From the IMG/VR virus record IMGVR_UViG_3300025141_016305, positions 96,001 through 160,000 of that record: a stretch of DNA of 64,000 nucleotides. The stretch is one strand, 5' to 3'. The first letter of the stretch is position 1; each line of letters opens with the position of its first letter. Below are positions 1-45,104 of this stretch, piece after piece. Source of the DNA: a virus. The notes beneath the pieces were generated by a model. The model was not told the DNA's origin and made no database searches. It worked only from the letters and a program-made list of their open reading frames with translations. The position numbers were made by a program, and so were the translations under genes.

Positions 1-2534
1 AGATAATTTGTTTTTGAATCATCATGTCTTGCTTCAAGCACTATCGTGTTTAAATCGTCATCATCACTAGCGCCGTCGATAATAGTGATCGTCGAACCAG
101 TTGGAGGCGAAGATGCTATTGATATATAGCCGGATGACGAGGTAGCCGCAACGGCCGGTGTTGTAACTACAGGAGCGGAATCATAAGTTGGGCCGCAGCC
201 ATAAAGGGAAGAATTAGTTATGGCTGCGGGTACATTAAGTTTTGGAAAAATAAAAGAACCCTCAGCTGTCCAAGGCGTCATCAAATAAGTTGAACCAGAC
301 ATAAACTTTCTAGTCTCTTCTTCATTAGAGGCTGAACTTGTTTGTATTATATTTGCGTCTTTATTAACCCCTTCGAAAGAGATCGTTTTCTTCTTTACAG
401 CAGTATAAACTGGTTCGTTTAAAATCTCTCTTTCTTCGTTGTTTGCATATACATTAAGGCGTATAAGATTTTCGTCAATACCAAAGCACCTTATAAGGTT
501 TCTGTATGAAGCTTCTGTTCCTTTAGATTTAAAAATATGATTTAAATTTCTATAAATATTTTTAAGAATCTTATTTTTAATATCATACGTATTTTGTTCA
601 AAAAGAATAGAAGGAGATTGGGGGTCTCCTTGTCCATAAAACATCTCTTCGATAGTTTCATATCTAGATAGCGCTGATTCTGTATAGTTCGATCCCTTTG
701 GAGGATCCACATTAAAGCCGCGGCCCATGAGCTGTAATCTTGCAAGCTTTGAATTATCTTCAAACCCTGCAGAATTAACTGAAAATTCATTTGCGCAACC
801 AAACAAATATTGATCATCAGAAAATACATAATTTGAACCTGTAACGTTTGTAAATTCTGTTAATTCTGACGATTTAATTCTTGTCAGATTATCGATATAA
901 GATTTAATGCTATCGAATTCTGAGGCCATGGCCTGTAGGAGAATCCCCATCTGACTCTTTATATTACTCGACCCCTCTCCGTCAGAATCGTACGCCCATT
1001 GTGGGACACTTTTCGCTAATGCTGTATGGTTTTGTGAATCATATCCTTTGCCGATCTTAATATATTCTTGCAGTGTACCCCTCGTTAGAGCCTCATACAT
1101 TACTGGGTCGGCGGATTCGTTATTAACTGCAGCGGAATCAGTTATAGCAGATCCGGCTACTCTAGAGGTGCTATTATAGCCAACAAATAAACCATTGGCT
1201 ATTCTTCCGGAATAGTCCAATATTATATTATCTGTCGAGTCTTGGCCTAAAATTCCTTCATTAAATTTATAATATAGCCCTAGGCCCGGGGCATGAGTGA
1301 TATCATCAACAGTTGCACCATATACCGGTTTGTCATAATAGACGCCTATTTCCCTTGCGTTTCGCTCAGTTTTCCAAAACCTAAAATCATCCACTGATCC
1401 GGATAATTTTCCCCAACCTAGGCCGGCTTGGGTAGTGGTTGTAACAGTAGAGACGGGTGCGGCTGCTGCACCAATAGTACCAGACATTGTTAATAACACT
1501 CTACCAACATTTGTACTATTCTTGATTGTCTCTTGTGGGTGGCCGGCAGTGTCTTTCTCCAAAACACCATCAACATAAAGTCTAGCTTTTAGAGCGCTGC
1601 CAGTATTTGCTACAGATACAGCATAGTGATGCCATTTACCATCAGCTACCTGGCCAGAAGTTAGATTAGTGGTTATTTGTCGACTTGAAAAGCCTACGTT
1701 GCCAGACAGATATGTAACCAAAAAAGGGTTAGAGCTAGATCCAGTTAATTCGACCAAAAATCGCCCATGGCCGGTATTAGCTGGAAGTGGTGAATTTACT
1801 GTGTATGAATCAAATACAACTTCTCTTTTGGATGCGTCTTCAAATTTAGATTTTTTCAACCAAAATTCAACAGTATTTCCATGTTCACCATCTATCTCTA
1901 TGTTGTTGGTCATCCTCAGCGAGGGAAGATATCTAGTATTAGGATTCACCCCACCATCAAAAGCAATATATTCTAATTTATCTGTAAGGTTATAATATGT
2001 AGAATTGGAACTTATAGAACCAGTATCACTTAAAGAAAAATTAACGTACCCAGTGGCTTTCGGATAAACATGTCTAAGAACTGAAACGTCTAACGCTGAA
2101 GCGCTCAATAACCACTCCAGCCTTTCGGCCCTTGAACCATCATAAGGATAAGTCTCTGTTATCCTATAAAACGCATCTCTATAATATTGTTCCGCGGAGC
2201 CATAACAAGCAAAAGTTGAAGGATCCTTAAAATCAACACTTGGCCTGATTAAGTTTTGAAGCTTGTGATGGGCGCTTATAAACCTATTTGACTCTATATC
2301 ATTCTCAATATTGCTGCCAATAGTGTCACTTATTCCCATACCGTGCTGAGGGCCTAAATACTGAGGGTTACCTATCGGCCTTGGTTCTTCCACTTCTGGG
2401 AGTCTATTCTGAATTCCTGATTCTGTATTTGCCCTGCCAGAAGGAGCACCAGGATTAAGATCCCTGTTGGTCTCTTCTTCTAAACCGGTAGCTCTGGTTC
2501 TTGGCGGGGGGAGGTTGTTGTTGTCATGACTCAT
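1..2534 (-). CDS. Large baseplate/tail structural protein with LamG (concanavalin-like) domain and gp7/tail-protein-I-like motif; runs off the window (partial, >840 aa); missing from the ORF track
   Basis: ATG at 2534 overlaps the upstream TGA (ATGA). Hand translation of segments, all in one frame, gives MSHDNNNLPP..., VDFKDPSTFACYGSAEQYYRDAF...YPYDGS, LamG motifs (TVEFWLKK, WHHYAVSV, LYVDG, SGSVDDFRFW) and NIYRNLNHIFKSKGT. No stop seen in the segments checked. Confidence 0.8.
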   Translation of the reverse strand, partial: MSHDNNNLPPPRTRATGLEEETNRDLNPGAPSGRANTESGIQNRLPEVEEPRPIGNPQYLGPQHGMGISDTIGSNIENDIESNRFISAHHKLQNLIRPSVDFKDPSTFACYGSAEQYYRDAFYRITETYPYDGSRAERLEWLLSASALDVSVLRHVYPKATGYVNFSLSDTGSISSNSTYYNLTDKLEYIAFDGGVNPNTRYLPSLRMTNNIEIDGEHGNTVEFWLKKSKFEDASKREVVFDSYTVNSPLPANTGHGRFLVELTGSSSNPFLVTYLSGNVGFSSRQITTNLTSGQVADGKWHHYAVSVANTGSALKARLYVDGVLEKDTAGHPQETIKNSTNVGRVLLTMSGTIGAAAAPVSTVTTTTQAGLGWGKLSGSVDDFRFWKTERNAREIGVYYDKPVYGATVDDITHAPGLGLYYKFNEGILGQDSTDNIILDYSGRIANGLFVGYNSTSRVAGSAITDSAAVNNESADPVMYEALTRGTLQEYIKIGKGYDSQNHTALAKSVPQWAYDSDGEGSSNIKSQMGILLQAMASEFDSIKSYIDNLTRIKSSELTEFTNVTGSNYVFSDDQYLFGCANEFSVNSAGFEDNSKLARLQLMGRGFNVDPPKGSNYTESALSRYETIEEMFYGQGDPQSPSILFEQNTYDIKNKILKNIYRNLNHIFKSKGTEASYRNLIRCFGIDENLIRLNVYANNEEREILNEPVYTAVKKKTISFEGVNKDANIIQTSSASNEEETRKFMSGSTYLMTPWTAEGSFIFPKLNVPAAITNSSLYGCGPTYDSAPVVTTPAVAATSSSGYISIASSPPTGSTITIIDGASDDDDLNTIVLEARHDDSKTNY

Positions 2535-4399
2535 GGATTCACTCTAAACTTAAACTTTTCTTTTTGCTCAACAAAATCAGTACTATCTTTGTAGAGAAAA
2601 CTTATTTCATATAAATAGTTTGGCTCTAAAATTGACATATCTAAATCGAAAAATAAACCTTTTTCATCATAAGATAATGAAGAAAAGCTAGGAGAACTAC
2701 CAGTGGAATAAGGTATAATCTCTAAATTGTCTGATACTCTCACAACTCTGTAATAGGCATCTTTTATAATCGTGGCTGTTGCTGTATTGCTAGCAACTGT
2801 ATAAATATTTGGTTGCCATGATTTATCTCTAGTAAAAATCCTAAAAGTATAAACTTCATTTTTGTCATATGAAGATTTTAAATTAGTAATATTTGTAAGA
2901 TAAGAAGGTATCTCCATATAGGAGCCAGGAGACTCAGTTGTTACCGTAAAGCCCGAACCTGTAAAAATTTGTTCGTGCCCTGAACTGCCTGTTGTACTCC
3001 AGACGTCTATCAACTTTGTCTCCGTGCCTGCATATGCAAACTCTGCTTTATATATCCCCTTGGAAGCTCTACTAGCGGTTATATGACTCAGGTTGATAGT
3101 AGTCACGCCACCGCCTTGAGAAAGGGCTTCAGCCGGGGCGGAGGCAGATGTATGCAATTGTACTAAGAGGGCTGACCCCGTATTTGGAATATCTACCAAA
3201 TTGTTTCTTCTTCTGTTATAGAGATAAATATTATTAAGATTATCTGCAGGGGGAGCTAAAGAGCTAGATTTTATAACACTGCTTCTGTCATCTTTAGTGG
3301 AAGCATCCCACTGTGCCTCTATAACCGGTCTTTTGAAAAAATTGTGAGAAGATCTTGCAAAAAACTTCTTAGTATAAAAAGATCTTAACTGTGCTCCATC
3401 TTCATATGAGCCGCTTAATCTTAATACAAAACCATTATTTGGGGCGCCTGTTCCGCCATTAAAGCTATTAAGTACAGCAACAGCTTCAGCCACACTTGAA
3501 GAAAGTGTTGTGTTTCCATAAAATCCCCTAATATTTTGGGTTAAGCTAGCAGTTACCTCTGAGGCGTTTTCATTTGCTCCGACTTTTGTTGCAGAAATGG
3601 CTGATCCTAAACCACTATTGTTTATCTCTTGAACTAAACTCTCGACAGATCCAGTGAGACCGGTCGACCCGATTGGGACCAAGACTGTTTTTCCAACAGA
3701 GCCACTAGTGTTAGAAAATTTAAATATTCTATGATCTCCCTCGTGAGAGTATATTTTAAATTCACTATCAACGGATACAGGCGTTGCAAGATTAGCCCCT
3801 TTAAAAACAATCGAACCAGTAGCTGCTGTTGATAACCCTTTGTAATCTTTTATGAATTCTTCTGTTATAGCTGTGACGTCGATTATAAAATCTTCCGTTC
3901 CGATATCAAACCCAGCTTGATAGTCTAATGGTGCCAATGGATTGTGTATAATTGCCGGGTCTGCGTAGTCGCTCCCCTGATTGTGCCAAGCTAAACCGGT
4001 ACTACATGAAACCCAGTTACTATTTCCAACATCTGTGAAGGATTCCATGTCGAGACCAGTACCCTCACTCCAATCCCTAACTAAAGGATGTGCAGTTACT
4101 GAAAACTTTTCGGGAGTAGTCTGCCCATGGGCAGCGTTAAAGAGTTTTAACTTAAAAGTAACGGATCCAGAACCCAGCATATATGCACTATCTCTATCAT
4201 TTGAAATTCCACTGACTGGGATTTGTACCAAAATTCTAGATTGCTCTAGTGAAGAAGTGTTGGATTGGCCAAATATTGAAAAAATCTCTACTATATCTGA
4301 AGAACCCATATTGGCCAGGGTCGCTCTGTTACTTAAATTTGTTTTAAAAGCAGAAGAAATGGTGTTGTCTTTTCCAGCTATATATCTTTTTATAGACAT
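2531..4399 (-). CDS. Virion structural protein (baseplate-associated; DNRLRE-like N-terminal region), Ser/Thr/Gly-rich
   Basis: 622-aa ORF between baseplate genes; N-terminal KDNTI...N.G...EQSRILV pattern. Confidence 0.55.
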   Translation of the reverse strand: MSIKRYIAGKDNTISSAFKTNLSNRATLANMGSSDIVEIFSIFGQSNTSSLEQSRILVQIPVSGISNDRDSAYMLGSGSVTFKLKLFNAAHGQTTPEKFSVTAHPLVRDWSEGTGLDMESFTDVGNSNWVSCSTGLAWHNQGSDYADPAIIHNPLAPLDYQAGFDIGTEDFIIDVTAITEEFIKDYKGLSTAATGSIVFKGANLATPVSVDSEFKIYSHEGDHRIFKFSNTSGSVGKTVLVPIGSTGLTGSVESLVQEINNSGLGSAISATKVGANENASEVTASLTQNIRGFYGNTTLSSSVAEAVAVLNSFNGGTGAPNNGFVLRLSGSYEDGAQLRSFYTKKFFARSSHNFFKRPVIEAQWDASTKDDRSSVIKSSSLAPPADNLNNIYLYNRRRNNLVDIPNTGSALLVQLHTSASAPAEALSQGGGVTTINLSHITASRASKGIYKAEFAYAGTETKLIDVWSTTGSSGHEQIFTGSGFTVTTESPGSYMEIPSYLTNITNLKSSYDKNEVYTFRIFTRDKSWQPNIYTVASNTATATIIKDAYYRVVRVSDNLEIIPYSTGSSPSFSSLSYDEKGLFFDLDMSILEPNYLYEISFLYKDSTDFVEQKEKFKFRVNP

Positions 4400-4412: not shown

Positions 4413-6269
4413 TTAATAATTTCTTTTTCCATTGTATTGTTTCATCACTATATCCGATGGTCTCTTGATTTCCCATATATGATCCGGGTCGATTTTCAAA
4501 GATTCCATGGGTCTTAATTTGCCTCTAGTGTCATACAAATTTCCTTCGTAACCTGTACCAGCTTTGGAAACCAAATTGACTGAACGTACCATACTAACGC
4601 CCGGAAAGTTTTGGATTATAGACCAAACCTTTGAAATATTGAAATGTTCTCCGATTTCTGGTGGGTTCATTGTTAATTCTTTATACAAAGTGTCCCTTAA
4701 TGGGCCTGTTAATCTTTCTCTGCTTGTGTTGCCCTCTGCTACAATATCATATTCTATTCCCAAATTTACTATATATGCGGGAAAAAGATCAACACTGTCT
4801 GATATCATTCTTCTAGTATTCAGAAAGGTTTTCAAATTTGCATATAAAGAAGGTGTTGGAGCCTGCAACTTTCCATCCGGACCTTCAGCGATAATGTACA
4901 TGTTTAAGTTTCGTCTAAAATCGTTATCGTCTCTTATAACTGTCGCTCTTTTGATTTTTCCATAGCGCGGTGGCATAGCATAAACCGCAGCTGCATAATC
5001 CTGCAGTGTGACTGCTCTCTTTTGTGCTGCGAAAGCCCCGCGGTGGCGGTGCTTCATCTCATTTGTCGACATCATGGAAACATCACCATTTATTGGGTTT
5101 GGGTTTCTTACCCTTATGCTATCTCTTACATACTTAATATAAGAGGGGTTCAGCAAATGCTCACTCTTAAACGTCATCCCAGTACTTAAAACTTGATTAC
5201 ATGCACCGGCAGCGACATTTACATTGCTTTTTTCATTATATTTATATTTTATTGTTAATGTTGTGTTGATTGGAGAAACCCCTAATTTATCGTTAGAGAC
5301 TAATTTGGTAGGATCGACAGATCTTGTACCATCCAAAGTACTTTTTCCGCTCATTTTTATCGCTAAATTGCTAGGATCTGCAACTGCATCTTCTTTAATC
5401 TTGTTAGCAGATCCAAAAGAAAATTCTAAAAATGTTTTTCCTCTTCTTTTTCTAACTACAAATCTTCTCATAACTGCCTCTGGGCGCATTATAGAAGATA
5501 CTTGAGTATTTGTATCTGAGATATTTGGTATGCTTTTCAACATAGAATTGGAAGTTAATGAATCTAGTTGGTGATATTCGTTGCCCTCTGAATCCGTTAC
5601 GCTTACAATTCCACTTACGTTTGGATGCCTCACTTCAATAATTGGTGACCTTGTAGGAACACCAACCACAGTGGATTGTTGCGCAATTTGACCAGAAGTT
5701 ACAGGAATTGACAACTTTGCAAGAAAAACTTTAACTTTAGATCCGTCGATTTCGGCAACTTCAGTGTTTGTGAAGTCAACCAAAACATCTTGAATTGTTA
5801 TATCATTGTCCAAAGTGAAAGTCTGACCACTTTCTGTGGCCAACAACATAAAAGGAGAAGAGTCACCTGCGTGCAAAACACCATCAAGATACGTACTATC
5901 TGGCTGGCCGTTGGCATCAGCCGGGATGGATAGGATCATTTCTAACGTTGTTGAGACTCTGGCCGCCAAGTCAAACTCTGCGCCATGCTCCTCCGCGAGG
6001 TCCCTAACGCTATTCTCTTCCTGCGCAGTAACCAGATTTGATTCTGCTGCGATATAATCTGTATAAAACGCTAATTGATCTCCAACATAAGACACCAGAT
6101 CAAACATCAAAGACCCAAAAGATGAAGCATTAAAATCTTGATATGTGTCTGGGTAATTTACTTTTACATACTCTACGAGTCTTTGTTTTATTGTGTCAAA
6201 ATCTCTAGCAGTATAATCTATAAAATTTTTAGGCACATTAATTGCGCGGTTGTTTATTCTTATTCCCAT
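4413..6269 (-). CDS. Baseplate wedge subunit (T4 gp6 / baseplate J-like)
   Basis: DYTARDFDTIK...YPDTYQDFN.SSFG...DLVSYVGDQLAFY and AQKRAVTLQDY motifs; adjacent to the gp25-like gene. Confidence 0.9.
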   Translation of the reverse strand: MGIRINNRAINVPKNFIDYTARDFDTIKQRLVEYVKVNYPDTYQDFNASSFGSLMFDLVSYVGDQLAFYTDYIAAESNLVTAQEENSVRDLAEEHGAEFDLAARVSTTLEMILSIPADANGQPDSTYLDGVLHAGDSSPFMLLATESGQTFTLDNDITIQDVLVDFTNTEVAEIDGSKVKVFLAKLSIPVTSGQIAQQSTVVGVPTRSPIIEVRHPNVSGIVSVTDSEGNEYHQLDSLTSNSMLKSIPNISDTNTQVSSIMRPEAVMRRFVVRKRRGKTFLEFSFGSANKIKEDAVADPSNLAIKMSGKSTLDGTRSVDPTKLVSNDKLGVSPINTTLTIKYKYNEKSNVNVAAGACNQVLSTGMTFKSEHLLNPSYIKYVRDSIRVRNPNPINGDVSMMSTNEMKHRHRGAFAAQKRAVTLQDYAAAVYAMPPRYGKIKRATVIRDDNDFRRNLNMYIIAEGPDGKLQAPTPSLYANLKTFLNTRRMISDSVDLFPAYIVNLGIEYDIVAEGNTSRERLTGPLRDTLYKELTMNPPEIGEHFNISKVWSIIQNFPGVSMVRSVNLVSKAGTGYEGNLYDTRGKLRPMESLKIDPDHIWEIKRPSDIVMKQYNGKRNY

Positions 6270-6271
6270 TT

Positions 6272-6736
6272 TTAATAATCCCTATTAATAGTAGATTCTA
6301 TTTTTGTGTTTTGCTGTACCATATCCTCACTGTCATTAGCAACTGTCCAGCCGTCTGTGCCGACGTTCATGGATCCTTGTAAATTTAAGCGCTTAACATA
6401 ATAATGTATTGTAATATGCGCTTGGCTGATGTCGATTAACTCCGGGTCAGATTTAACATCTACTGACGTTATTTGTATTGCTGGTAGGTACCTTTTTACT
6501 TGTTGTTTTATTTTTCCTACAACTGCCATAAACTCTTGAGAATTTGCAGTTTCAAATAAATATTTTGTCAAACCCACTCCCAGAGCAGGTCTCATGGGCC
6601 ACTCGCCAGGTATTGTTCTTAAAAGAAACAAGAGGTCTTGATGTAGAGACCGGGCGACTTCCTCTCTCTCGATTGCCATATATGGCCCGTGTTCGAGATT
6701 CTTTTTTAATGGCCATACAGGCTGCAACAAGCTCAC
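6272..6736 (-). CDS. Baseplate wedge protein, gp25/GPW-like
   Basis: LLRTIPGEWPMRPALGVGLTKYLFE motif. Start moved to GTG at 6736 because a GGAGGA Shine-Dalgarno lies at 6744-6749. Confidence 0.85.
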   Translation of the reverse strand: MSLLQPVWPLKKNLEHGPYMAIEREEVARSLHQDLLFLLRTIPGEWPMRPALGVGLTKYLFETANSQEFMAVVGKIKQQVKRYLPAIQITSVDVKSDPELIDISQAHITIHYYVKRLNLQGSMNVGTDGWTVANDSEDMVQQNTKIESTINRDY

Positions 6737-6754
6737 AAAACTATCCTCCAGATA

Positions 6755-6762
6755 TAAATAGT
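6755..6762 (-). promoter_or_regulatory. Putative late promoter ACTATTTA upstream of the gp25-like gene
   Basis: Same CTAWTTA motif as before other structural genes; followed by a Shine-Dalgarno and GTG. Confidence 0.55.
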
Positions 6763-6801
6763 GATTTATCAATATTCTTTGCAAATAAGTTTGTTTACAT
6801 T

Positions 6802-20054: not shown

Positions 20055-20750
20055 CTATTCTTTATCCCACTTTGTTTTAAACAATCTATACTTTTCTCTT
20101 AATTTATTTAGATTATTTACAACTTGTTTTGTATTAAGGCCTGTTAATTCTCTCAAGTACAAATAAACCGCCTTCTTGTTGAATATTTCAATGTCCTCTA
20201 TATTGTGCAGGAGAACTTTTACAGCCTCAAGAACAGATTTTTCGTTTGGTTTTAAATTGCCGTTGTCCCACTTGTCAACTTGGCTTAGCAAACTGTTCCA
20301 AAATTCTATCTCTGTGCGTCTTTCTATATATGAATCAACTTCTGTGTCGGAGGTTCCATTTAGGACATCGGCTCCTCCATTTTCTACAAGGTTCTCATAC
20401 GAAACCTCTCTTTTAATTTTTTTAGAATTCTTTTTTACTTTGTGAATAAACCAATTTTTTGTAACAACAGAGAAATAAGAAAAAGCTTTTGACCCCTTGT
20501 TTGGGTCATATTTTTCTAATATCGTAGTTAGCCAAACTTTACAATCTTCCCTTAAAGAATCAATATTTGGAAGTGTATTGAACTTATAAGTAAAAATGAT
20601 TTTATTAACCATCTCATCAAAAGCAGGCTGGATTAGAGATCCATATAGTTTTTCTCTTTCCTTTTTGCAATTAGTTGATGCATAGCTTACTATTGCATCT
20701 TCATGTAATTTTGTAAAATAATCATTTTTCTTACTTTTCCTTCTTCTCAT
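20055..20750 (-). CDS. Phage RNA polymerase sigma-like factor (late, gp55-like)
   Basis: Region-2-like EKYDPNKGSKAFSYFSVVTKNWFI; C-terminal HTH-like YLYLRELTGLNTKQVVNNLNKLR. Confidence 0.8.
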   Translation of the reverse strand: MRRRKSKKNDYFTKLHEDAIVSYASTNCKKEREKLYGSLIQPAFDEMVNKIIFTYKFNTLPNIDSLREDCKVWLTTILEKYDPNKGSKAFSYFSVVTKNWFIHKVKKNSKKIKREVSYENLVENGGADVLNGTSDTEVDSYIERRTEIEFWNSLLSQVDKWDNGNLKPNEKSVLEAVKVLLHNIEDIEIFNKKAVYLYLRELTGLNTKQVVNNLNKLREKYRLFKTKWDKE

Positions 20751-21517: not shown

Positions 21518-22489
21518 TTACATATTCTCCTTTATCTTTTTGAAATCACTCTCATACATAATTTTGGCTAATTTCTTAAATGTTACTTTTGGCTGCCAAC
21601 CCAATACTCTTTTTGCCTTTGAACTATCGCCCAACAAAAGCGGTACTTCATGTGGTCTAAATAATCTTTCATCTATTTTAACATGCTTATCTACATCTAG
21701 GCCTGCTATAGTAAAAACTTCTTCCAAAAATTCTTTAACAGTATGTGTTTCCCCAGTTGAAATAACATAATCATCAGGGTATTTTTGTTGCAACATAAGC
21801 CACATTGCTTCAACATAGTCGCCGGCGAAACCCCAGTCACGTTTTGCTTCTAGGTTGCCCAAATATAAAGTATCCTGTAGGCCTAACTTGATCCTGGCTG
21901 CAGCAAGTGTTATCTTTCTAGTCACAAATGTTTCCCCTCGTTTAGGAGATTCGTGATTAAACAAGATACCAGAAGAAGCATGCATTCCGTACCCGGTCCT
22001 ATAATTATTCACTAAATTATGAGCAAACAATTTTGCACATGCATATGGAGATGCCGGCTGGAACGCTGTCTTTTCTGATTGTGGCACTTCTGGATTATCT
22101 CCAAACATCTCAGACGATGAGGCTTGATAGAATTTGCAATTCGGCCGGAGTTCTCTTAGTGCATTTAAAATTTTTAATGTGCCCATCGCGATGCCGTCGA
22201 CCGTATTTTCAGGTATATCGAAAGATACTCTAACGTGAGATTGTGCCGCAAGATTGTAGAATTCATCTGGCTTGTATTTATTGATTAATTTCCACACAGA
22301 CCCTGCATCATTTAGATCAAAAAACTCCATATGAAACCTGGGGTGACCGAAGACATGATCTACTCTTCCAGTGTTGAAAGAGGAGCTTCTTCTTTTGAGA
22401 CCTATAACTCTATATTTTTTATTCAATAAAAATTCGGCCAGATAGGCGCCGTCTTGGCCTGTGATTCCTGTGATCAATGCTGTTTTCAT
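21518..22489 (-). CDS. gmd: GDP-mannose 4,6-dehydratase
   Basis: [66 protein letters not shown]. Confidence 0.97.
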
Positions 22490-22491
22490 CT

Positions 22492-23493
22492 TTATTCCTT
22501 ATTTAGTTCTTCATTTAAAATATCTACAATTTTATCTGCGGAATTGCCGTCACCATATGGACATGGTAAATCTATAGACCAATCTGATTTTACCTTTTCA
22601 AAGGCCCTCTTTAGTTCCTTGGGCTTGGCGCACATAAACGCAAAACTACCTATACCCTCTAACCTCTCTGTCTGTTCTCTACAAACAATGCATTTTTTTT
22701 TCAGAAACGATGTTTCTTCTTGTAATCCGCCTGAGTCTGTTATGACAAACCTTGTTGTTGCCAAAATAGATATAAATTCACTATACTCCATTGGCTCGAT
22801 AATATTAACGTCTGATAGTAGATGTTTATGTTTTTGTACATTTGGATTAGGGTGTAAGGGTATTATAAAATCTAAATGCTTGTTATTTTTTGCAATATTG
22901 TTTATTTCTTTAAACCACATGTGCATTTGTTGATGGTTTTCTCTTCTATGCATAGTTACTACAACTTTATTAGAATAAGTTGGAACTAGATCTTTCAAAT
23001 TATCTAAAACTGTATTGCCTACTACTTCAATTCTTCCCTGCGTGGATTCATCGAGAAGAAATTTTTTCGATGTCTCAGTTGGGCACAGGTGTAAATCAGC
23101 AATTCTAGAAATAGCCTGCCTATTAAACTCTTCTGGATATGGTTGTAATTTATTATAAGTTCTTAGACCTGCTTCGAGATGTACAACTTTTATCTTTCTG
23201 TGAAATGCAGCCAAGGCCACCGCAAAGGCCGAGGTAGTGTCTCCTTGTACTAGTACCGCCTTTACGCCTTTGAACACTTCGTCTTGGTTCATTATGGAAG
23301 ACACAATTGAATCAAGTCTATTTTTTCCATGAACAATAGATAATCTAATTATATCCCCTTCCTCTGCTATAATCTTTCGTAGCAAATCTTCATGTTGCCC
23401 TGTAAACAACAATTTATAAGGCAGATTAATCTTGGCCAATATTGGTTTAATTTTTATAAACTCGGGCCTAGTCCCAAAAGATACTAATATCAC
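22492..23493 (-). CDS. wecB: UDP-N-acetylglucosamine 2-epimerase (non-hydrolysing type)
   Basis: [38 protein letters not shown]. Start moved to GTG at 23493. Confidence 0.9.
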
Positions 23494-23494
23494 T

Positions 23495-23800
23495 TTATAA
23501 CTCTTCTTCAAAAAAAGTATCAGAAGTAATTGCCTTATCACATATGAATAAATCATAGATCGGCTTCTTTAAAATTAGGTCATGATACTTAACACCCCAC
23601 TTTTTAAATTGTTTTTGTGTTGTTTCTGTCCAGTCTATACCTGAACCAGTGCCGCGGGCGGTCCAATAAATAATCTGATTACCTTGGTCAAAAAGTTCGT
23701 TTATTTTTGATATGCGATTCTTCAGCGGTGTAGCTTTTGAATAATCTCTATTCGGCGGTGAGGAACAAATTGTCTCATCTATATCAACATAAATTATCAT
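23495..23800 (-). CDS. Small HAD-family phosphatase (capsule-biosynthesis phosphatase type)
   Basis: YVDIDETI, WTARG, KP.YD motifs; paralog at 54991-55347. Confidence 0.8.
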   Translation of the reverse strand: MIIYVDIDETICSSPPNRDYSKATPLKNRISKINELFDQGNQIIYWTARGTGSGIDWTETTQKQFKKWGVKYHDLILKKPIYDLFICDKAITSDTFFEEEL

Positions 23801-24621
23801 TATTTTCCTCTTAGGCTTTCTCTTTTGGAAAGCTCTGAACCCAATACTTGTCTTGGGCCGGGATTTCCAAAAGATTTTTCAATATCTCTGATTCCTTTTA
23901 CAAGCTTCATTAAGCCAATTGGTTCTACTGACGCCATCTGATCGCTGCCCCACATTGTTCTGTCTAAAGTTATGTGTCGTTCGACCCATGTGCAGCCCAT
24001 GGCGACTGCTGCAAATGTGGTAACTAAACCATATTCATGGCCGCTATAGCCTATATCTTTATTGACGTTTTTACTGGAAAGGTGATGAATATAGTTCAGG
24101 TTTAATTCTTCTATTTTTGAAGGGTAGGAAGAGTTTGTATGCATTATAACATCCGGATCGCAAACATCTACGCACAATGAAATTTCCTCCTCCGTACTCA
24201 TTCCTGTGGAAATTATCAAATTATCACAATTTTGTCTTGCGTATAAACAAAGTTCAAGATCGGTTATAAGTGCAGATGGGATTTTCATTATAGAAGTATA
24301 TTGTTTCATGAAATCAACTGATGGCTTATCCCATACAGATGCGAATAATTTTACTTTCTTAGTTTCTGCATATTTATACAAATCATCATATTGTTCTTTT
24401 TCAAATTCGATCCTATTTTTATAATCAATATATTTCATCTCGCCCCAGGGTGTAGAGCGCATTTTATCTTTCTGATGTTCTGGGACGCAAAGTTCTGGTG
24501 TTCTTTTTTGAAACTTTGCATAATCACATCCGGAAACTTCGGCCAAATCAATTAGCTTTTTTGCCAATTCAATATCGCCATTGTGGTTTATTCCAATTTC
24601 TGCTATTATTTTAACTGCCAT
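23800..24621 (-). CDS. neuB: N-acetylneuraminate synthase family protein (short; no C-terminal SAF/antifreeze domain)
   Basis: IIAEIGINHNGD, AKFQKR, ISTGMS, GYSGHE, VERHITLDR, GSDQ.AS; 273 aa. Confidence 0.9.
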   Translation of the reverse strand: MAVKIIAEIGINHNGDIELAKKLIDLAEVSGCDYAKFQKRTPELCVPEHQKDKMRSTPWGEMKYIDYKNRIEFEKEQYDDLYKYAETKKVKLFASVWDKPSVDFMKQYTSIMKIPSALITDLELCLYARQNCDNLIISTGMSTEEEISLCVDVCDPDVIMHTNSSYPSKIEELNLNYIHHLSSKNVNKDIGYSGHEYGLVTTFAAVAMGCTWVERHITLDRTMWGSDQMASVEPIGLMKLVKGIRDIEKSFGNPGPRQVLGSELSKRESLRGK

Positions 24622-25255
24622 GTTTATTCTTGAATTCCTCTAAATCACTAAGAGTATCTATATCAATAACTTTTGGTATCTTGTAATATAAAGTATCTTT
24701 ATTATACAGGTTGTTGTTTAGGTTTTTAATCTCATTTGTTTTAAATATACTAATCATATGACATATTTTAAAACATTTGGGATAATCTTGCCTCCTATAG
24801 TAATCGTGCGGGACTATTTGAGAGCCCCTATTGTTATCCTCTTCTTTTAGAAATAAATAAGGACTAACATCTATTTCTTCTCTGCACAATAAAGATAGAG
24901 CTTTATTGCACTTAAACCATTCATACGCCTTCAATACATCTTCCCATTTTCTTTCTGGGTATGTCAAATACAGCATTATTACATCTCCAGATAATTGACA
25001 ATCTTCAACAACTTCCTCGACACACTGTAATGTGGAAGCTGTGTCTTTTGCGCTTTTAGCACTACGATTGTGAATATTGCACATTGCAAAATCACTGCGT
25101 ACGCGGGCAATAATCGATGGATCATCTGTACTAACAAAGACCTTATCACGATATTGTTTTGGGATCTTATTTAGCGTGGCATCTAACAGTATTTGATTTT
25201 TTTTTGGCAGGCCTTTGGAGCCCTTTCTGGCTGGTATGATAATGTTGAAGTTCAT
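24611..25255 (-). CDS. neuA: Acylneuraminate cytidylyltransferase
   Basis: IIPARKGSKGLPKKN, VSTDD, RRQDYP, DIDT. Confidence 0.88.
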   Translation of the reverse strand: MNFNIIIPARKGSKGLPKKNQILLDATLNKIPKQYRDKVFVSTDDPSIIARVRSDFAMCNIHNRSAKSAKDTASTLQCVEEVVEDCQLSGDVIMLYLTYPERKWEDVLKAYEWFKCNKALSLLCREEIDVSPYLFLKEEDNNRGSQIVPHDYYRRQDYPKCFKICHMISIFKTNEIKNLNNNLYNKDTLYYKIPKVIDIDTLSDLEEFKNKHGS

Positions 25256-25258
25256 TTT

Positions 25259-25903
25259 TCATCTATTTGCTTTTTCATATATGGGAAACTGTGATAAGTC
25301 TTTATGAATCCCTGAAGTTTCTAGATCTTCATTGTAATCCTCTATATTTTTGAATAGCTCCAAGCCCTCTGCCGCTTGTTCCGGGGGCATATACATATTC
25401 CACCCTATCATGTCGAAAGAGTCGTCCTTGTAAAGTTTATCTATATGGCGACCTTCATATCTAGCTACCTTGAACCAGTCGTATGCTTTTTTATCGTTTG
25501 TAAGAATCATTCCACCTTTGCCAATTGGAATATGTTTTCTGCGGTGAAAAGAGAGACAATAATAAGAATCTTGCACGTACATGTCTTTTCTCATTCTGGT
25601 TGCTGCATCATAAACTGGGTATGGAGATAATTGATATTCTCCTGACCAATCTATATCTTTAAATTTTACCTGACAACCTGCGTGAATCACTGTGCACGGG
25701 ACGGATACATAGGTTCTTTTTGGGAGCGTAATTTCTCCTTCTGCTTTTAAATACTTTAAGCACAAAAACATCGCATCAGTACAATTATCAATGGCTACAG
25801 CATATTTGCTTCCCGCGTAATTTGCCATCTTCTTTTCAAAAAGATCGACCACATCCCATGGATCAGATAAATTATAATCCTTTATATACTTTTCTACTAA
25901 CAT
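25259..25903 (-). CDS. Short DegT/DnrJ-family PLP aminotransferase
   Basis: FEKKMANYAGSKYAVAIDNCTDAM, DAA, LSFHRRKHIPIGKGGMILT; start set to the ATG at 25903. Confidence 0.8.
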   Translation of the reverse strand: MLVEKYIKDYNLSDPWDVVDLFEKKMANYAGSKYAVAIDNCTDAMFLCLKYLKAEGEITLPKRTYVSVPCTVIHAGCQVKFKDIDWSGEYQLSPYPVYDAATRMRKDMYVQDSYYCLSFHRRKHIPIGKGGMILTNDKKAYDWFKVARYEGRHIDKLYKDDSFDMIGWNMYMPPEQAAEGLELFKNIEDYNEDLETSGIHKDLSQFPIYEKANR

Positions 25904-25905
25904 AA

Positions 25906-26568
25906 TTATTGCGGGTCTTCTACTCGTATTAACAAATTGCATGCATCGGCTTGATTAAAACATCGATCGATAATGCACTGCTCGTCAGTAAAGCGACCAG
26001 CAGCGTCGACGCAGTTTGCCCTAACACAATTAGCAAAGTTGATATAGGCATTCTGTGCAGCTGCACTATACCGGTCCATGCACATGCGGCTGCATTCCAC
26101 TTGTTCTTCTTCCATCATATATTGGCCACAATTTTCCTGATCAAAACAACCAACCAATTCAAGACACTCAGCTGCTACGGCGCGATCTACTCCGGTGTCG
26201 GGAAACTGACTATCACTGCCGGTGGATGGCTGATCCTCTTCTACTGCCGGAGTGAAGTCGCTCATCGGTGCGGTACCGCCTGTTGGCTCGGCGGATTCTT
26301 CTTCGGTCATAATTCCTGCCATGACGCTAGGGGAGTTTGGAGTTTCTTGGCCGGCCGAGGGAATGTATTCATTAACAGGTGGGGTTTGCGTGTTGCTTGG
26401 CGTACATCCGTACCGGCTGCCTTCGAGAGTTAATTGTTCAGTACACTCAAGCCCATCGCCACAGTCGAAATCGCCAGCATTGCAGTTGCCGCTAGGAATG
26501 TGCCTTTTTTCTTTTTCGCACCCAAAAAGAAAAATAAGTGTTGTTAATAGTATAAAAATTAATTTCAT
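25906..26568 (-). CDS. Cys-rich lipoprotein
   Basis: Signal peptide with LFGC lipobox, Pro/Glu/Thr linker, two Cys-rich domains; visibly more GC-rich than its neighbours. Confidence 0.7.
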   Translation of the reverse strand: MKLIFILLTTLIFLFGCEKEKRHIPSGNCNAGDFDCGDGLECTEQLTLEGSRYGCTPSNTQTPPVNEYIPSAGQETPNSPSVMAGIMTEEESAEPTGGTAPMSDFTPAVEEDQPSTGSDSQFPDTGVDRAVAAECLELVGCFDQENCGQYMMEEEQVECSRMCMDRYSAAAQNAYINFANCVRANCVDAAGRFTDEQCIIDRCFNQADACNLLIRVEDPQ

Positions 26569-26571
26569 TTT

Positions 26572-27228
26572 TTATCCTTTTTTTCTTGTCATCTTATCAT
26601 AATATTCGCCAACTTTAAATGATTTACCCGTGGTCGCAGTAGTGCCCGCGAAATCTTCATCATAGGCAAAACCAGGAATAACTCTAAAATCAAAACTAAC
26701 TCTTGTCGCACCTGTCTTATTGGTTTTGTTTCCGTGGCGGACTTGATTTAAATAAGCAAACAAAAATTCGCCATATTCCAACTCTATTGGCTTAAAGTCT
26801 CCTAGGCCTGGTAGGGTTTCTGACCAGATTGTATTAGTTCCGTAACATTTAGTGATGGGCAAAAAGATATTTACCTCTCCTAATGGGTGCTTATGGTTAG
26901 AATCCCCATCGCAGTGCCAAAGATAGACTGCTTTTGCCCCAGGTCTATGAAATCGAATGTTCGGATATTTTTGATATATAAGCGTATCGTCTTGAAACAA
27001 GGGAAATACAACCTTTCGAAGGAAAGAGGTATATAAGTTCTCGAATTCTGGCCAGCCATCATCAATCTTTTTATAGAAAGCTTTATGGAAAGGTGTGTGA
27101 GTATCCTCTCCTAGTGCCAAATTTTTCTTTCGATCGTGACTGTCTAAATCTTCTAGGGGCACCTCGTATAAGGCGCGTACAAGCTGGGAAAAAGGATATT
27201 TTTTTGTATCATACTTTATTATTTTCAT
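26572..27228 (-). CDS. 2OG-Fe(II) oxygenase-like protein (StrG-like)
   Basis: WHCDGD...HP.GEVN..LP.T and HGN..N.TG.TRVSFDFRV. Confidence 0.7.
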   Translation of the reverse strand: MKIIKYDTKKYPFSQLVRALYEVPLEDLDSHDRKKNLALGEDTHTPFHKAFYKKIDDGWPEFENLYTSFLRKVVFPLFQDDTLIYQKYPNIRFHRPGAKAVYLWHCDGDSNHKHPLGEVNIFLPITKCYGTNTIWSETLPGLGDFKPIELEYGEFLFAYLNQVRHGNKTNKTGATRVSFDFRVIPGFAYDEDFAGTTATTGKSFKVGEYYDKMTRKKG

Positions 27229-27243
27229 TTATACTCTCCAATT

Positions 27244-28323
27244 TTAGTAATATTGTTTAGAAAATTTAATTATTTTTTCACAAATATAATCAATTTCTAA
27301 ATTTGTTAAATCCGGAAACGATGGAAAAACTACCACTTCCTTGTTTATCAATTTTGCATTTATATCTTTTCCGGAAAAATTTAAGTGTTTATGAGCCCTG
27401 TAGGAATAAAACATTGGCCTAGTATCGATTGCCGCGGCCATAAAGAAATCTTTTGCTACATCATATCCTTTTGAACCTGGTATTTTAATTCCGAACATCC
27501 ACTTTGAATGAGTAGTATTTTCTTCTTCTATTTGCAGTTTCACGTTGGGGATGTTTTTTAAATTTTCTTTGTACCTTGAAAAAATTCTTTTTTTACTTTC
27601 GATGATACTGTTGCTATCTTCTAATTGCCCAAGAAGCAGAGCAGCTTGTATATTCGTCATTCTATAGTTGTATCCTAATTCATCATGAATAAATCTGACT
27701 TCGCTCTGCCCTTGTCCTCTTAGTTTTGAAGCGTATTCATAAATATTTTTATCATTTGTCAAAAAAGCACCACCTTCACCACAAGTTATATTTTTATTGC
27801 CGTAAAAAGATAGTGAAGAACACAGGGATTGAGTACCAGAAGAATAGCCGGCATAAGACCCAAAAAAACCCTCACAGTTGTCTTCAATAATTGGACAATT
27901 AAATTTTTGTTTCAAATCTGGGACGTTTATTATGTTTCCCAAGTTATGTACAGCAAATATCGCGCTTCCCTCTTCAACCTTGTCTATTTCCATATTCCAA
28001 GTATTTAAATTCAGATCGACACACTCAACTGCCCATTCATTATTATCATACACTAGAGAATTGTAAGCTGCAACGTAACATGCACTAGGCACTATAATCT
28101 TTTTTATATCTGGGCGTGTTTTTTTTAGCGCTCTTACCACAAGGTGTGTGGCAGCGGTACCATTATTAGTAAGGAGTGCATATTTGTAGCCTCCTACTTC
28201 TGATAGTTTTTCTGAAGCTAAATCAACATATTTGCCTGTTGAAGATACCCAGGAAGACTTTATGGCATCATTAGCATAGTGCGCGCTTTTCGCGGAGATA
28301 GATGGCTTATATACCGGAATCAT
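27244..28323 (-). CDS. DegT-family aminotransferase (perosamine-synthase-like)
   Basis: WVSSTGKYV, NGTAATHL, IEDNCE, SFYGNKNITCGEGG, GYNYRMTNIQAA. Confidence 0.9.
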   Translation of the reverse strand: MIPVYKPSISAKSAHYANDAIKSSWVSSTGKYVDLASEKLSEVGGYKYALLTNNGTAATHLVVRALKKTRPDIKKIIVPSACYVAAYNSLVYDNNEWAVECVDLNLNTWNMEIDKVEEGSAIFAVHNLGNIINVPDLKQKFNCPIIEDNCEGFFGSYAGYSSGTQSLCSSLSFYGNKNITCGEGGAFLTNDKNIYEYASKLRGQGQSEVRFIHDELGYNYRMTNIQAALLLGQLEDSNSIIESKKRIFSRYKENLKNIPNVKLQIEEENTTHSKWMFGIKIPGSKGYDVAKDFFMAAAIDTRPMFYSYRAHKHLNFSGKDINAKLINKEVVVFPSFPDLTNLEIDYICEKIIKFSKQYY

Positions 28324-28729
28324 TTTCTCTTCTCATAAAAATAGTATCTTCTGTTTCTTTAAACTTGCTGAATTCGAATGTTTCATATACATGAATTGCT
28401 CTTTCGTTGTCCCTATCCACTGACAAATATATCTCTCCAGAGTACGAATCTATAAGCTTTTTCATTATCTTTTTGCCATAACCCTTTCCATAATGACCTT
28501 CTTTCACACATATTCCAAGCCACACTTTGTCGGATGCGTGATCTAGATCTAGGTGACCATAGCCGATTGCGGCCGTATCTATCAAAAGAAAAGTGACAAT
28601 ATGGTTTTCAATCGCGGTTTCGGGTGTGCGATTAGAATAATATCTAAACTTTTTTTCAGACGAACCTATTGAATGTATAAAATTTCTCAAAGTAGAAATA
28701 TTATTCTGATCAATTTTTAAGAATTTCAT
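28307..28729 (-). CDS. GNAT acetyltransferase
   Basis: LGICVKEGHYGKGYGK motif A; N.RAI..YE. Confidence 0.85.
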   Translation of the reverse strand: MKFLKIDQNNISTLRNFIHSIGSSEKKFRYYSNRTPETAIENHIVTFLLIDTAAIGYGHLDLDHASDKVWLGICVKEGHYGKGYGKKIMKKLIDSYSGEIYLSVDRDNERAIHVYETFEFSKFKETEDTIFMRRENDSGI

Positions 28730-30508: not shown

Positions 30509-30509
30509 T

Positions 30510-31953: not shown

Positions 31954-32209
31954 TTATACTGCTCCAAATATTAGACACATAAAGACTTGGGTCTTCATCG
32001 ATTATCTCTTTCTTTACCGCTACAATTGTTGCAGCCCCGGGGCACAAACACTTTGGATGCACTATTCCTCTGGCTCCGGCATCAATAACAAAAGAAAAAA
32101 AGTTTTCAGGATACGCGTCGTGCATGTATTCTCCCACTTTTCGGTGATTGTATTTTTGAATTTTTGGAAATGCCCACGATACACTTTTTTCACTAAGGTC
32201 TATTCTCAT
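31946..32209 (-). CDS. Hypothetical protein, possibly a chimeric gene remnant
   Basis: 87-aa ORF overlapping both neighbours; VIDAGA resembles a SAM-binding motif I but the protein is too short for a full fold. Confidence 0.4.
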   Translation of the reverse strand: MRIDLSEKSVSWAFPKIQKYNHRKVGEYMHDAYPENFFSFVIDAGARGIVHPKCLCPGAATIVAVKKEIIDEDPSLYVSNIWSSING

Positions 32210-33911: not shown

Positions 33912-33913
33912 CT

Positions 33914-40037: not shown

Positions 40038-40044
40038 ATATGTT

Positions 40045-45092: not shown

Positions 45093-45104
45093 ATGCAATG
45101 TTTA

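Follow-up and report, generated by a model that had tools for sequence, protein, structure and literature searches.

Cytoplasmic O-glycosylation of many Ser residues in a beta-rich surface protein, at a short strand-loop-strand element, is catalyzed by the bacterial autotransporter heptosyltransferases (BAHTs; TibC/TibA, Aah/AIDA-I), GT9-like enzymes that transfer heptose and assemble as dodecamers containing iron. In the serine-rich-repeat (SRR) adhesins, a GT4-type pair (GtfA/GtfB), followed by GT8, GT2, and GT-D enzymes, modifies S-x-S-type acceptors in the cytoplasm before assembly/export. Flagellin O-glycosylation (Campylobacter, Helicobacter, Aeromonas) is also cytoplasmic, and uses CMP-nonulosonate (pseudaminic or legionaminic acid) to modify Ser/Thr in exposed domains of the self-assembling filament with no strict sequon, while the general O-glycosylation system of Bacteroidota is periplasmic and recognizes the three-residue sequon D-[ST]-[AILVMT]. 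Among phages, virion O-glycosylation by phage-encoded glycosyltransferases (GTs) has been described for mycobacteriophages (Freeman et al. 2023, Cell Host Microbe, as cited in PMC12619734 and PMC11256854), with glycans reported on the C-termini of capsid and tail-tube subunits.

We analyzed a window of 64,000 nucleotides from the 175-kb genome (G000) of an uncultured marine phage of the 'Far-T4-like' myophage lineage. The first three ORFs below are on the minus strand as initially annotated, and the gp25-like gene anchors the region as a baseplate module; the giant LamG protein extends past the left end of the window as an ORF of 3357 aa (G000 88461-98534).

3..2534, minus strand: giant tail/fibre protein, N-terminal 844 aa in the window, with a Laminin_G_3 (concanavalin-like) domain at aa 214-396 (Pfam)
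2531..4399, minus strand: 622-aa tail/baseplate-module protein (B622), the strongest motif carrier (15 [ST][GAS]S, 9 [ST]GS)
4413..6269, minus strand: gp6-like baseplate wedge protein, 618 aa (PHROG), an internal control without the motif
6272..6784, minus strand: gp25-like baseplate wedge protein (Pfam GPW_gp25, 2.4e-11; PHROG baseplate wedge)
20055..20750, minus strand: gp55-like late sigma factor, between the baseplate genes and the sugar island (PHROG 234, 7.2e-06)
21518..41764, minus strand: variable sugar island, all products soluble (Pfam)
within 21518..41764, minus strand: GDP-mannose-type 4,6-dehydratase, UDP-GlcNAc 2-epimerase, NeuB, cytidylyltransferase
within 21518..41764, minus strand: three DegT-type aminotransferase ORFs, GNAT, FdtA-SDR fusion, PhyH dioxygenase, methyltransferase
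within 21518..41764, minus strand: transferases, namely three GT2, GT8, GT11-like, GT17-like, GT29-like, GT-D-like
41761..43830, minus strand: GT4b fused to a C-terminal GT2 domain, 689 aa, EX7E intact
43827..45098, minus strand: GT4a, a soluble GT4-family glycosyltransferase, EX7E intact, a lineage core gene
45929..46702, minus strand: PD-(D/E)XK nuclease, the synteny anchor, conserved next to GT4a on its left in every relative

The initial annotation had counted 15 [ST][GAS]S tripeptides by hand in the 622-aa protein, and this number is correct (TGS six times, SGS three, SSS and TAS twice each, SAS and TSS once each, SGT none) against about 5.0 expected. Composition shuffles gave 5.08 +/- 2.18 and reached 15 in 0 of 2000 cases, shuffles inside 40- or 20-residue blocks still predicted 5.0-5.2, and [ST]GS alone occurs 9 times against 1.3-1.7 expected. 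The LamG protein, in which repeated motifs had been noticed, is enriched too, both in its in-window part (13 vs 4.03, p = 0.0005) and at its full 3357 aa (34 vs 12.3). The excess is chiefly Gly-centred ([ST]GS 4.8-fold; [ST]AS and [ST]SS ~2-fold), the codons at the motif sites are mixed, and TGT shows no enrichment in the proteins tested for it. The motif is directional in the 622-aa protein (S[GAS][ST], its reverse, 7 vs 5.1) but not as a general rule: the 3357-aa and 777-aa proteins have an excess of the reverse as well. The gp6-like protein does have zero motifs, but with 1.67 expected this is no significant depletion; its homologues in the relatives G001 and G002 and in Mel-JY01 and immuto are likewise at or below expectation.

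The motif was picked after inspection of the sequence, and the 3357-aa protein by itself does not reach family-wise significance (p = 0.30), so the excess might be post hoc or an artefact of composition. However, when all tripeptides are scanned without prior choice, TGS comes out as the most over-represented one in the 622-aa protein (family-wise p = 0.016) and again the top one in the second, unrelated 3357-aa protein. A scan pooling 471 proteins of five lineage genomes ranks SGS, TGS, and SGT (z = 15.4, 11.5, and 10.6) as the top three of 8000 tripeptides, none of which stands out in T4. Together with the local shuffles, these scans effectively refute an artefact, whose probability we regard as negligible.

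The claim that only some virion proteins carry the motif is borne out: the excess is limited to a subset of tail proteins and is retained in more than 100 homologues. Seven carriers, viz., the sheath (outer domains), its 777-aa neighbour, the 622-aa and 3357-aa LamG proteins, and proteins of 723, 455, and 404 aa, together contain 47 [ST]GS versus 9.8 expected (z = 12). The proteome minus the five top proteins lies at chance level (47/47 = 1.01), as do MCP, portal, the gp6-like protein, and a 3606-aa protein. All sheath motifs (8/8) are in the N-terminal residues 1-636, outside the C-terminal region matching sheath family profiles. The capsid is not enriched, so the proposed coating of the 'virion surface' should instead read 'tail'; this also counts against a glycosylation sequon. 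BLAST finds no similarity among the carriers, except between the 404-aa and 455-aa proteins at their C-termini; together with the mixed codons this indicates selection on the peptide, independently in each protein. Turn-forming tripeptides with N/D next to Gly are not enriched in the seven proteins ([ND]G[ST] 11 vs 13.8; [ST]G[ND] 9 vs 14.0), which points to a requirement for the hydroxyl residues rather than for turn-formers. The [ST]GS excess is hence a real motif, kept by selection at the amino-acid level. We tentatively favour, at somewhat short of an even chance, the reading that it is an acceptor tag for O-glycosylation of tail proteins by the conserved GT4s of the lineage; the original interpretation is partly supported.

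A hydrophobic residue follows [ST]GS in 23 of the 47 cases, against a 30% background, and the motif occurs in hexad repeats of immuto and RM378 fibre-like proteins (e.g., TGSLSTSGSLGVTGSI in immuto). These features count against a sequon and fit a purely structural role, a substantial if minority possibility, in which [ST]-G-S-hydrophobic is a turn/strand-start or fibre-rung block of beta-rich tail folds, inherited and re-invented because it is good for folding and assembly, and the GTs do something else. One SGS indeed belongs to the canonical LamG C-terminal strand (GKLSGSVDDFRFW). The AF2 model of the 622-aa protein (pLDDT 82.6) is a chain of Ig/FN3-like beta-sandwich domains, matched in Foldseek by multi-Ig/FN3 proteins and uncharacterised viral structural proteins, and its motifs are placed where secondary-structure elements meet, in parts folded with confidence. 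The nine [ST]GS are in loops and hairpins, before strands, and at helix N-termini; such mixed contexts imply that no single conformational role is shared and speak against the structural explanation. Among at least 363 homologues (mean 16.4 motifs vs 5.1 expected), ~10 of ~16 motifs per homologue occupy conserved positions of the well-folded beta-sandwich, which are conserved no more than average columns, i.e., like ordinary core positions, as a structural block would be and contrary to a sequon. On the other hand, homologues with ~36% identity retain 9-20 motifs (3-6 expected) while having ~5 positions in common with the window protein, and the 81 distinct motif columns among 21 sequences indicate that density is maintained through positional turnover. 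This turnover, the sequence-unrelated carriers, and the lack of enrichment of generic turns (N/D-G-x, x-G-N/D) sit poorly with structure alone.

Over whole genomes, [ST]GS has a ratio of 1.5-2.7 in every one of the six phages that carry the PD-(D/E)XK-GT4a(-GT4b) module, namely G000, the cultured Flavobacterium phage immuto, Microcystis phage Mel-JY01, and Rhodothermus phage RM378, and two complete marine relatives, with hosts in at least three phyla, and [ST]GS-[FLIV] words are common to immuto, Mel-JY01, and RM378 proteins. The ratio is 0.76-1.5 in T4, Bellamy, SP-15, ACG-2014a, and HTVC008M, with no excess in T4, the two cyanomyophages, and SP-15, and weak enrichment in HTVC008M. In T4, TGS occurs 2 times against 8.4 expected across the proteins scanned, and [ST]GS is absent from Hoc, gp10, gp12, and gp7; that T4 beta-rich fibres, Hoc, and baseplate proteins have no excess again argues against a structural block. 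Conversely, the sheaths of phages without the GT4 pair show a roughly twofold [ST][GAS]S excess (T4 4/1.9, Bellamy 6/2.1, HTVC008M 6/2.2) and the fibres of HTVC008M, which has no GT4, an SGS excess (35/14), both supporting the structural explanation at the expense of the sequon. Sheath excess is also missing from G001 and RM378 (both with GT4a) and LR756508 (GT4a only), and motif excess from TJE1 and phiPsal1, which have distant GT4 homologues; these too count against a sequon. The suggested co-occurrence of motif and GTs is thus found for the GT4 pair in every module phage tested, but it is one lineage-level association: no complete relative lacks the pair, the two contigs without it are incomplete (the sequence of the relative G003 ends ~5 kb beyond the baseplate genes), and the association is confounded by shared ancestry.

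The '24-kb exporter-less glycosylation island' proved to be a true island of sugar-nucleotide and glycosyltransferase genes (21.5-45.1 kb), encoding no polytopic membrane protein and no exporter. The island itself is not the companion of the motif, since the complete relative G001 has a different ~10 kb island at the same place and the motif is still in excess, albeit more weakly, in the G001 counterparts of the 622-aa and LamG proteins. Island content varies between relatives, some of it encoding sulfotransferases and kinases, and the GT4a/GT4b pair alone is constant. GT4a shows 56-72% identity in the top 80 among 342 related stretches from IMG/VR and is more conserved than the 622-aa protein, its putative substrate; EX7E is present in the orthologues of G001, G002, immuto, RM378, and LR756508, that of Mel-JY01 being split. 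In relatives, GT4b is a separate ~420-aa protein, with a separate GT2 nearby in some. Profile searches with GT4a/b matched generic GT4s alone (BshA, MshA, chlorovirus B736L), with scores well under the family cut-offs, and no known protein O-glycosyltransferase, which weakens the case for a sequon.

GT clusters that occur variably and sporadically in large phages have been taken to remodel host glycans (PMC7824862). The island, including the GT4 pair, might likewise remodel host envelope glycans, to exclude superinfection or mask receptors as has been suggested for clusters in cyanophages, or might act on another non-virion acceptor, with the motif coincidental; we consider this, too, a minority possibility, and the differing island content of close relatives speaks for it. 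A peripheral GT can act on undecaprenyl-linked intermediates without having a transmembrane segment; an 'exporter-less' island is hence compatible with the use of host exporters, and the soluble GTs could act on host lipid-linked glycans rather than on tail proteins. However, the ~60% identity of the GT4a/b pair across phages of Bacteroidota, Cyanobacteria, and Rhodothermota hosts is odd for host-specific glycan enzymes, and the island has no initiating phosphoglycosyltransferase, flippase, or polymerase.

DNA glycosylation is unlikely: no thymidylate-synthase-type hydroxymethylase was found, and a Tet/JBP search, run without a positive control, returned nothing. LC-MS of immuto DNA gave dA, dC, dT plus fdPreQ1 (bioRxiv 10.1101/2023.04.13.536721).

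The motif statistics would equally fit any chemically specific, selected linear motif, and the island has a cytidylyltransferase, methyltransferases, and GNAT besides the sulfotransferases and kinases of relatives. The reader could then be something other than a glycosyltransferase, acting in phosphorylation, phosphoglycerol/CDP-linked or acyl transfer, or being a tail-assembly chaperone or a host/environmental ligand; but no kinase or protein-modifying enzyme was found conserved with the motif, and the lineage-constant enzymes found beside the island are GT4a and GT4b only, making such a reader improbable.

Returning to the favoured glycosylation of tail proteins, we infer that an enzyme reads the motif, that this is probably GT4a/b, and that the product would be a tail glycan. 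The proposal draws on the strength and specificity of the motif, its recovery in the unbiased scan, its restriction to unrelated carriers, its turnover and mixed AF2 contexts, the distribution in module phages, the conservation of GT4a with its EX7E, an island without membrane proteins, and the improbability of DNA glycosylation. Under it, [ST]-G-S, usually with a following hydrophobic residue, would be a short linear motif selected in outward-facing tail proteins, whose position-3 Ser, and perhaps position-1 Ser/Thr, may be glycosylated in the cytoplasm. GT4a and GT4b would prime the glycan, and enzymes of the adjacent island, differing from genome to genome, would extend and decorate it; the G000 island encodes a nonulosonic-acid pathway.

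Among the known systems, the Bacteroidota sequon is similar in having a hydrophobic residue after the acceptor, and some lineage hosts are Bacteroidota, but D-[ST]-[AILVMT] is not enriched here (2 vs 2.5 in the 622-aa and 15 vs 11.4 in the 3357-aa protein) and the proposed site of action is cytoplasmic. ST-turns/Asx-turns and beta-hairpin turns also have Ser/Thr then Gly at strand or helix starts; in the phage proteins, however, the Asn/Asp equivalents are unenriched and the excess is a feature of this lineage, not a general one. The NeuB, cytidylyltransferase, aminotransferase, and GNAT set recalls flagellin glycosylation, although no Maf-type transferase was identified (a weak GT29-like match only) and conservation of the NulO genes does not extend to relatives, none being present among the ten G001 island ORFs scanned. 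The strand-loop-strand element of BAHT acceptors resembles the hydrophobic-x-[ST]-G-S-hydrophobic pattern at strand starts and in the hexad repeats, but the candidate enzymes here are GT4s and no BAHT-type enzyme was seen. As in the SRR system, the enzymes are soluble throughout and comprise an adjacent GT4-fold pair together with GT8, GT2, and GT-D-like transferases. The differences are that the phage GT4s have no GtfA/GtfB match in NCBIfam, that both retain the catalytic EX7E whereas GtfA/GtfB are a catalytic/non-catalytic pair, and that isolated tripeptides in folded domains replace the long disordered acceptor tracts. The mycobacteriophage system belongs to a different lineage with different hosts and GT sequences (21-25% identity at best), the actinophage phiPsal1 having a distant GT4 homologue between its capsid and neck genes. 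In contrast to the acceptors in the accounts cited above, the capsid is unenriched here and the candidate sites are internal [ST]GS in folded tail, baseplate, and fibre proteins. What the two would share is cytoplasmic modification of a phage's structural proteins by soluble GTs that it encodes itself, with no need for export machinery.

The left end of the window is a baseplate module, and nearly all window genes are carried on the minus strand. The window covers bases 96001-160000 of a source virus record that spans 175,011 bp and is 96% complete (IMG/VR).

Features at the left end of the window (window coordinates)
3-2534: Laminin_G_3 (LamG) protein, running past the window edge to position 88461 of the whole genome (G000), where it has 3357 aa
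2531-4399: 622-aa protein, baseplate module
4413-6269: gp6-like protein, baseplate module
6272-6784: gp25-like protein, baseplate module

The LamG protein of the window is just the first quarter of the 3357-aa ORF; its homologue has 3430 aa in one complete marine relative (G001), and a second such relative (G002) has a 2417-aa ORF at the matching position. By phmmer searches with T4 proteins, the genome interval 45.6-67.6 kb holds the sheath, gp13-like neck protein, MCP, prohead protease, portal, and terminase. Among cultured phages, comparison of sheath and GT4 puts Microcystis phage Mel-JY01, Flavobacterium phage immuto, and Rhodothermus phage RM378 nearest. No GenBank phage matches the 622-aa protein; marine metagenomes yield at least 363 homologues of it, and IMG/VR at least 578 related stretches.

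The 622-aa protein contains 15 tripeptides of the broad pattern [ST][GAS]S against 5.08 ± 2.18 expected, a total reached in 0/2000 composition shuffles; the hand counts of the initial annotation, which had proposed this enrichment, proved exact on recount. The LamG protein, for which it had reported repeats of the same kind, is likewise enriched, both in its window part (13 vs 4.0) and over the full 3357 aa (34 vs 12.3). With shuffling confined to 40- or 20-residue blocks, the comparison for the 622-aa protein stays at 15 vs 5.0-5.2, ruling out local S/T/G-rich patches as the cause; chance and composition are excluded as the source of the excess. The 76 sites use mixed codons in line with general usage, so that the signal acts at the peptide level, and a nucleotide-level cause, i.e., a DNA motif translated as TGS, is ruled out. 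TGS tops all tripeptides for over-representation in the 622-aa (family-wise p=0.016) and 3357-aa proteins. When the seven enriched tail proteins are pooled, the core is Gly-centred, with [ST]GS at 47 vs 9.8, [ST]AS and [ST]SS at about twofold, and [ND]G[ST] and [ST]G[ND] at or below chance; TGT is at chance in the proteins tested. The residue after [ST]GS is hydrophobic in 23 of the 47 sites vs a 30% background. The directionality claimed for the motif holds for the 622-aa protein only, as SG[ST] is also enriched elsewhere, and the gp6-like protein, described as free of the motif, does have a count of 0, but against an expectation of 1.7 this depletion is not significant.

Across the whole genome the excess is limited to seven proteins, namely the sheath and the 777-, 404-, 455-, 723-, 3357-, and 622-aa proteins, and the proteome ratio drops to 1.01 once the five top carriers are removed. 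In the sheath, all eight sites fall within residues 1-636, outside the C-terminal region matching sheath family profiles, and the 777-aa carrier adjoins the sheath. MCP, portal, terminase, and the gp6-like, 3606-, 1006-, 1061-, and 1045-aa proteins are at chance. The suggested coating of the virion surface should be narrowed to the tail: MCP has 2 motifs vs 2.0 expected, and the sites occupy internal positions of tail, baseplate, and fibre proteins. Generic sequon-directed O-glycosylation calls for a short motif in excess over composition in candidate substrates only, which is the distribution found here. A repeated domain common to the carriers is ruled out, since BLASTP between them finds similarity only at the C-termini of the 404- and 455-aa proteins. 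The 3606-aa ORF (window 6802-17622, upstream of gp25) has 5 vs 7.5 for the broad pattern and 0 vs 2.1 for [ST]GS. A DnaB-like helicase encoded outside the window (G000 26715-28118) has four [ST][GAS]S vs 0.65 and zero [ST]GS; the broad pattern thus also catches non-virion proteins.

The glycosylation island to which the motif had been tied is borne out by Pfam at window 21.5-45.1 kb. Its enzymes include a GDP-mannose-type dehydratase, a UDP-GlcNAc 2-epimerase, NeuB, a cytidylyltransferase, DegT aminotransferases, a GNAT, and an FdtA-SDR fusion, and its glycosyltransferase domains are of the GT2, GT4, GT8, GT11-like, GT17-like, GT29-like, and GT-D-like types, with about eight in addition to those of GT4a (43827-45098) and the GT4b-GT2 fusion (41761-43830). 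Its description as exporter-less also stands: no polytopic membrane protein is encoded among 34 ORFs, and no Pfam domain for an initiating phosphoglycosyltransferase, Wzx/Wzy, or an ABC exporter was detected among them. Host enzymes could still supply the initiating phosphoglycosyltransferase and export functions. What is constant across relatives is a module of a PD-(D/E)XK nuclease, GT4a, and GT4b; the remaining island is variable. GT4a is 56-72% identical in the best 80 of 342 related IMG/VR stretches, and GT4a and GT4b match generic GT4 enzymes only. Judged by predicted gene content, the locus is a hypervariable glycan-chemistry hotspot beside a constant GT4 pair. The island might alternatively serve the remodelling of host glycans, a role judged independently of the motif and one that we consider rather unlikely.

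At the same locus in G001 (136.8-146.2 kb) lies a smaller island, different from window 21.5-41.8 kb, with Glyco_trans_1_2, an SDR dehydratase, a sulfotransferase, an FkbM methyltransferase, a DegT fragment, and a PfkB kinase; NeuB was not found among the ten ORFs scanned there. The window NeuB homologue (23800-24621) has only 273 aa, filled by the NeuB domain, and no C-terminal SAF domain was detected in it.

DegT-type and related ORFs of the island (window coordinates)
25259-25942: DegT-type or related ORF
25906-26568: DegT-type or related ORF
39096-40037: DegT-type or related ORF

Two DegT-type ORFs cover the profile partially, one its N-terminal positions 17-113 and the other its C-terminal positions 164-359; a 220-aa ORF without a Pfam match follows the first. 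Splitting or truncation of aminotransferase genes may explain this arrangement. A 144-nt direct repeat (45070-45213 and 45910-46053; 88% identity, spacing 840) flanks an FkbM methyltransferase gene (45249-45932) on both sides and duplicates the junction between the nuclease 3' end and the GT4a start. Since nuclease and GT4a overlap directly in G001, the window methyltransferase looks like an inserted cassette with junction duplication. An argument for a late promoter from the pattern TATAAATA upstream of GT4a was dropped, as the pattern sits in the 144-nt duplicate of the nuclease 3' end and is not above chance within the window.

A role of the island or the GT4 pair in DNA glycosylation is unlikely, because the 96%-complete genome has no PF00303 match (TS-like hydroxymethylase), a search for TET/JBP (PF12851), run without a positive control, found no match, and the DNA nucleosides of immuto are dA, dC, and dT plus fdPreQ1 only (bioRxiv 10.1101/2023.04.13.536721).

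All six module phages are enriched in [ST]GS genome-wide (observed to expected: G000 1.88, G002 2.38, G001 1.47, immuto 2.51, Mel-JY01 2.45, RM378 2.73), and the five outgroups are weak or negative (T4 0.76, Bellamy 1.16, SP-15 1.12, ACG-2014a 1.37, HTVC008M 1.51); the six belong to one lineage, and the sheath panel is mixed. In an unbiased scan of five lineage genomes, SGS, TGS, and SGT rank first to third of 8000 tripeptides, and [ST]GS-[FLIV] words, some in hexad repeats, recur in proteins of immuto, Mel-JY01, and RM378. In immuto, two tail proteins, of 373 and 1053 aa, have 17 and 60 motifs, respectively. As a generic trait of beta-rich phage structural proteins the excess was not seen in Bellamy, ACG-2014a, SP-15, or 28 T4 proteins; T4 structural proteins including Hoc, gp7, gp10, gp12, and gp34-37 have none. 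There are counter-examples: the sheaths of T4, Bellamy, and HTVC008M reach about twofold on the broad pattern, those of G001, RM378, and LR756508 (a 484-kb uncultured huge phage) have no excess, and HTVC008M fibres are rich in SGS (35/14) without any GT4. The GT4 pair occurs in 10 of the 12 long relatives, and the two without GT4 matches are incomplete (the G003 sequence, 88% complete, stops some 5 kb after the baseplate genes; G009 is 55% complete), so that the 12 give no contrast for a within-lineage comparison and no control naturally without the pair. A GT4a profile search of IMG/VR likewise returned the same lineage only. Two siphophages with distant GT4 homologues, TJE1 and phiPsal1, have no motif excess, a result that is uninformative because the enzymes are just 21-25% identical. 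Read from these genomes, the motif-GT4 link is one phylogenetically confounded association. LR756508 keeps a neighbourhood of PD-(D/E)XK nuclease, GT4a, and cytidylyltransferase (297-315 kb) and has two sheath paralogues related to that of G000; GT4b was not found in the 17 kb examined there, nor a motif excess in 43 kb around the sheaths. In Mel-JY01 (PP395634 83441-84932) the GT4a orthologue is split into ORFs of 190 and 302 aa, by a frameshift, a sequencing error, or a broken gene, and its tail proteins are motif-rich despite the split.

AF2 models the 622-aa protein (pLDDT 82.6) as successive beta-sandwich domains, for which Foldseek returned solely multi-Ig/FN3 arrays and uncharacterised viral structural proteins; a match to a solved phage protein was rejected, the hits being generic Ig/FN3 arrays with no PDB sequence relative. 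By AF2 secondary structure only, three of its nine [ST]GS sites immediately precede strands (77, 194, 407), two lie at a helix start or ahead of one (249, 329), three are in hairpins (232, 470, 480), and one is in a loop (566). Although mixed in context, every site is in an ordered region. Across 120 homologues the mean is 16.4 motifs vs 5.1 expected, with a lowest ratio of 2.1. In those of at least 46% identity, 12 conserved columns hold about 10 motifs per sequence, with the remainder near chance, and the motif columns are conserved about like the whole protein. At about 36% identity, totals are still 9-20 vs 3-6, just six reference sites persist, and 21 sequences have 81 distinct motif-bearing columns, a turnover possibly inflated by alignment error in variable regions. 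Steady totals with few persisting sites indicate that motif density is kept while positions turn over. That the motif is purely structural is a serious possibility, though one we lean away from. Sites that are ordered and flanked by hydrophobic residues, the repeats of hexads, and a weak excess even where the pair is lacking would suit a lineage-specific structural unit. A generic turn fits poorly, given that the motif is chemically specific, absent from T4, set in mixed structural contexts, carried by unrelated proteins, and subject to turnover of its positions.

O-glycosylation of the motif by GT4a/b, with [ST]GS as a candidate sequon, is possible and not far from an even prospect; it is strengthened by the constancy and strong conservation of the pair in phages of several host phyla and by its position beside a hypervariable decorating island. 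Recognition of the motif by another reader, or a different modification of it, is improbable. Building on the sequon reading, we tentatively propose that an abundant lineage of aquatic T4-like myophages, world-wide in marine and freshwater, to which immuto, Mel-JY01, and RM378 belong, would add O-glycans to its own tail, baseplate, and fibres within the cytoplasm of the host. The GT4a/GT4b pair would prime serines of a hydrophobic-[ST]-G-S-hydrophobic sequon, and the hypervariable island would then build strain-specific glycans, capped in G000 with nonulosonic acid, so that the tail, and not the head, would carry a diversifying 'glycan coat'. Should [ST]GS prove to be a sequon, a very abundant aquatic myophage lineage (at least 578 related IMG/VR contigs by the 622-aa protein, 342 by GT4a) would join the phages with virion glycosylation, and the motif would be the first sequence rule to predict phage glycosites, account for the constant GT4 pair adjoining a hypervariable sugar island, and bear on adsorption, host and grazer recognition, and particle stickiness in the sea. 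If structural only, it would still be a lineage-specific signature for spotting outer tail proteins. With three cultured relatives combining motif excess and GT4 module, the idea is directly testable.

Compared with known systems, G000 differs from phage DNA glycosylation (T4 a/b-GT, 5hmC/5hmU hypermodification), whose hydroxymethylated-base pathway genes were not found in it, and from lipid-carrier O-antigen/CPS loci, whose initiating phosphoglycosyltransferase and Wzx/Wzy or ABC exporter were not found in 34 ORFs. The N-x-[ST] sequon of NGT/chlorovirus-type N-glycosylation is not in excess (8 vs 8.3 in the 622-aa and 27 vs 38 in the 3357-aa protein), nor, in the same two proteins, is the D-[ST]-[AILVMT] sequon of Bacteroidota O-glycosylation. 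To our knowledge, mycobacteriophages are the only phages for which virion glycosylation by phage-encoded enzymes has been demonstrated. G000 likewise encodes glycosyltransferases; however, the mycobacteriophage acceptors are reported at capsid and tail-tube C-termini, whereas its motifs are internal and its MCP, the one of these subunits compared, is at expectation. The GT4 enzymes also have no NCBIfam match to GtfA/GtfB of the accessory-Sec SRR-adhesin system, and whereas one partner of GtfA/GtfB is non-catalytic, GT4a and GT4b both keep the EX7E motif.
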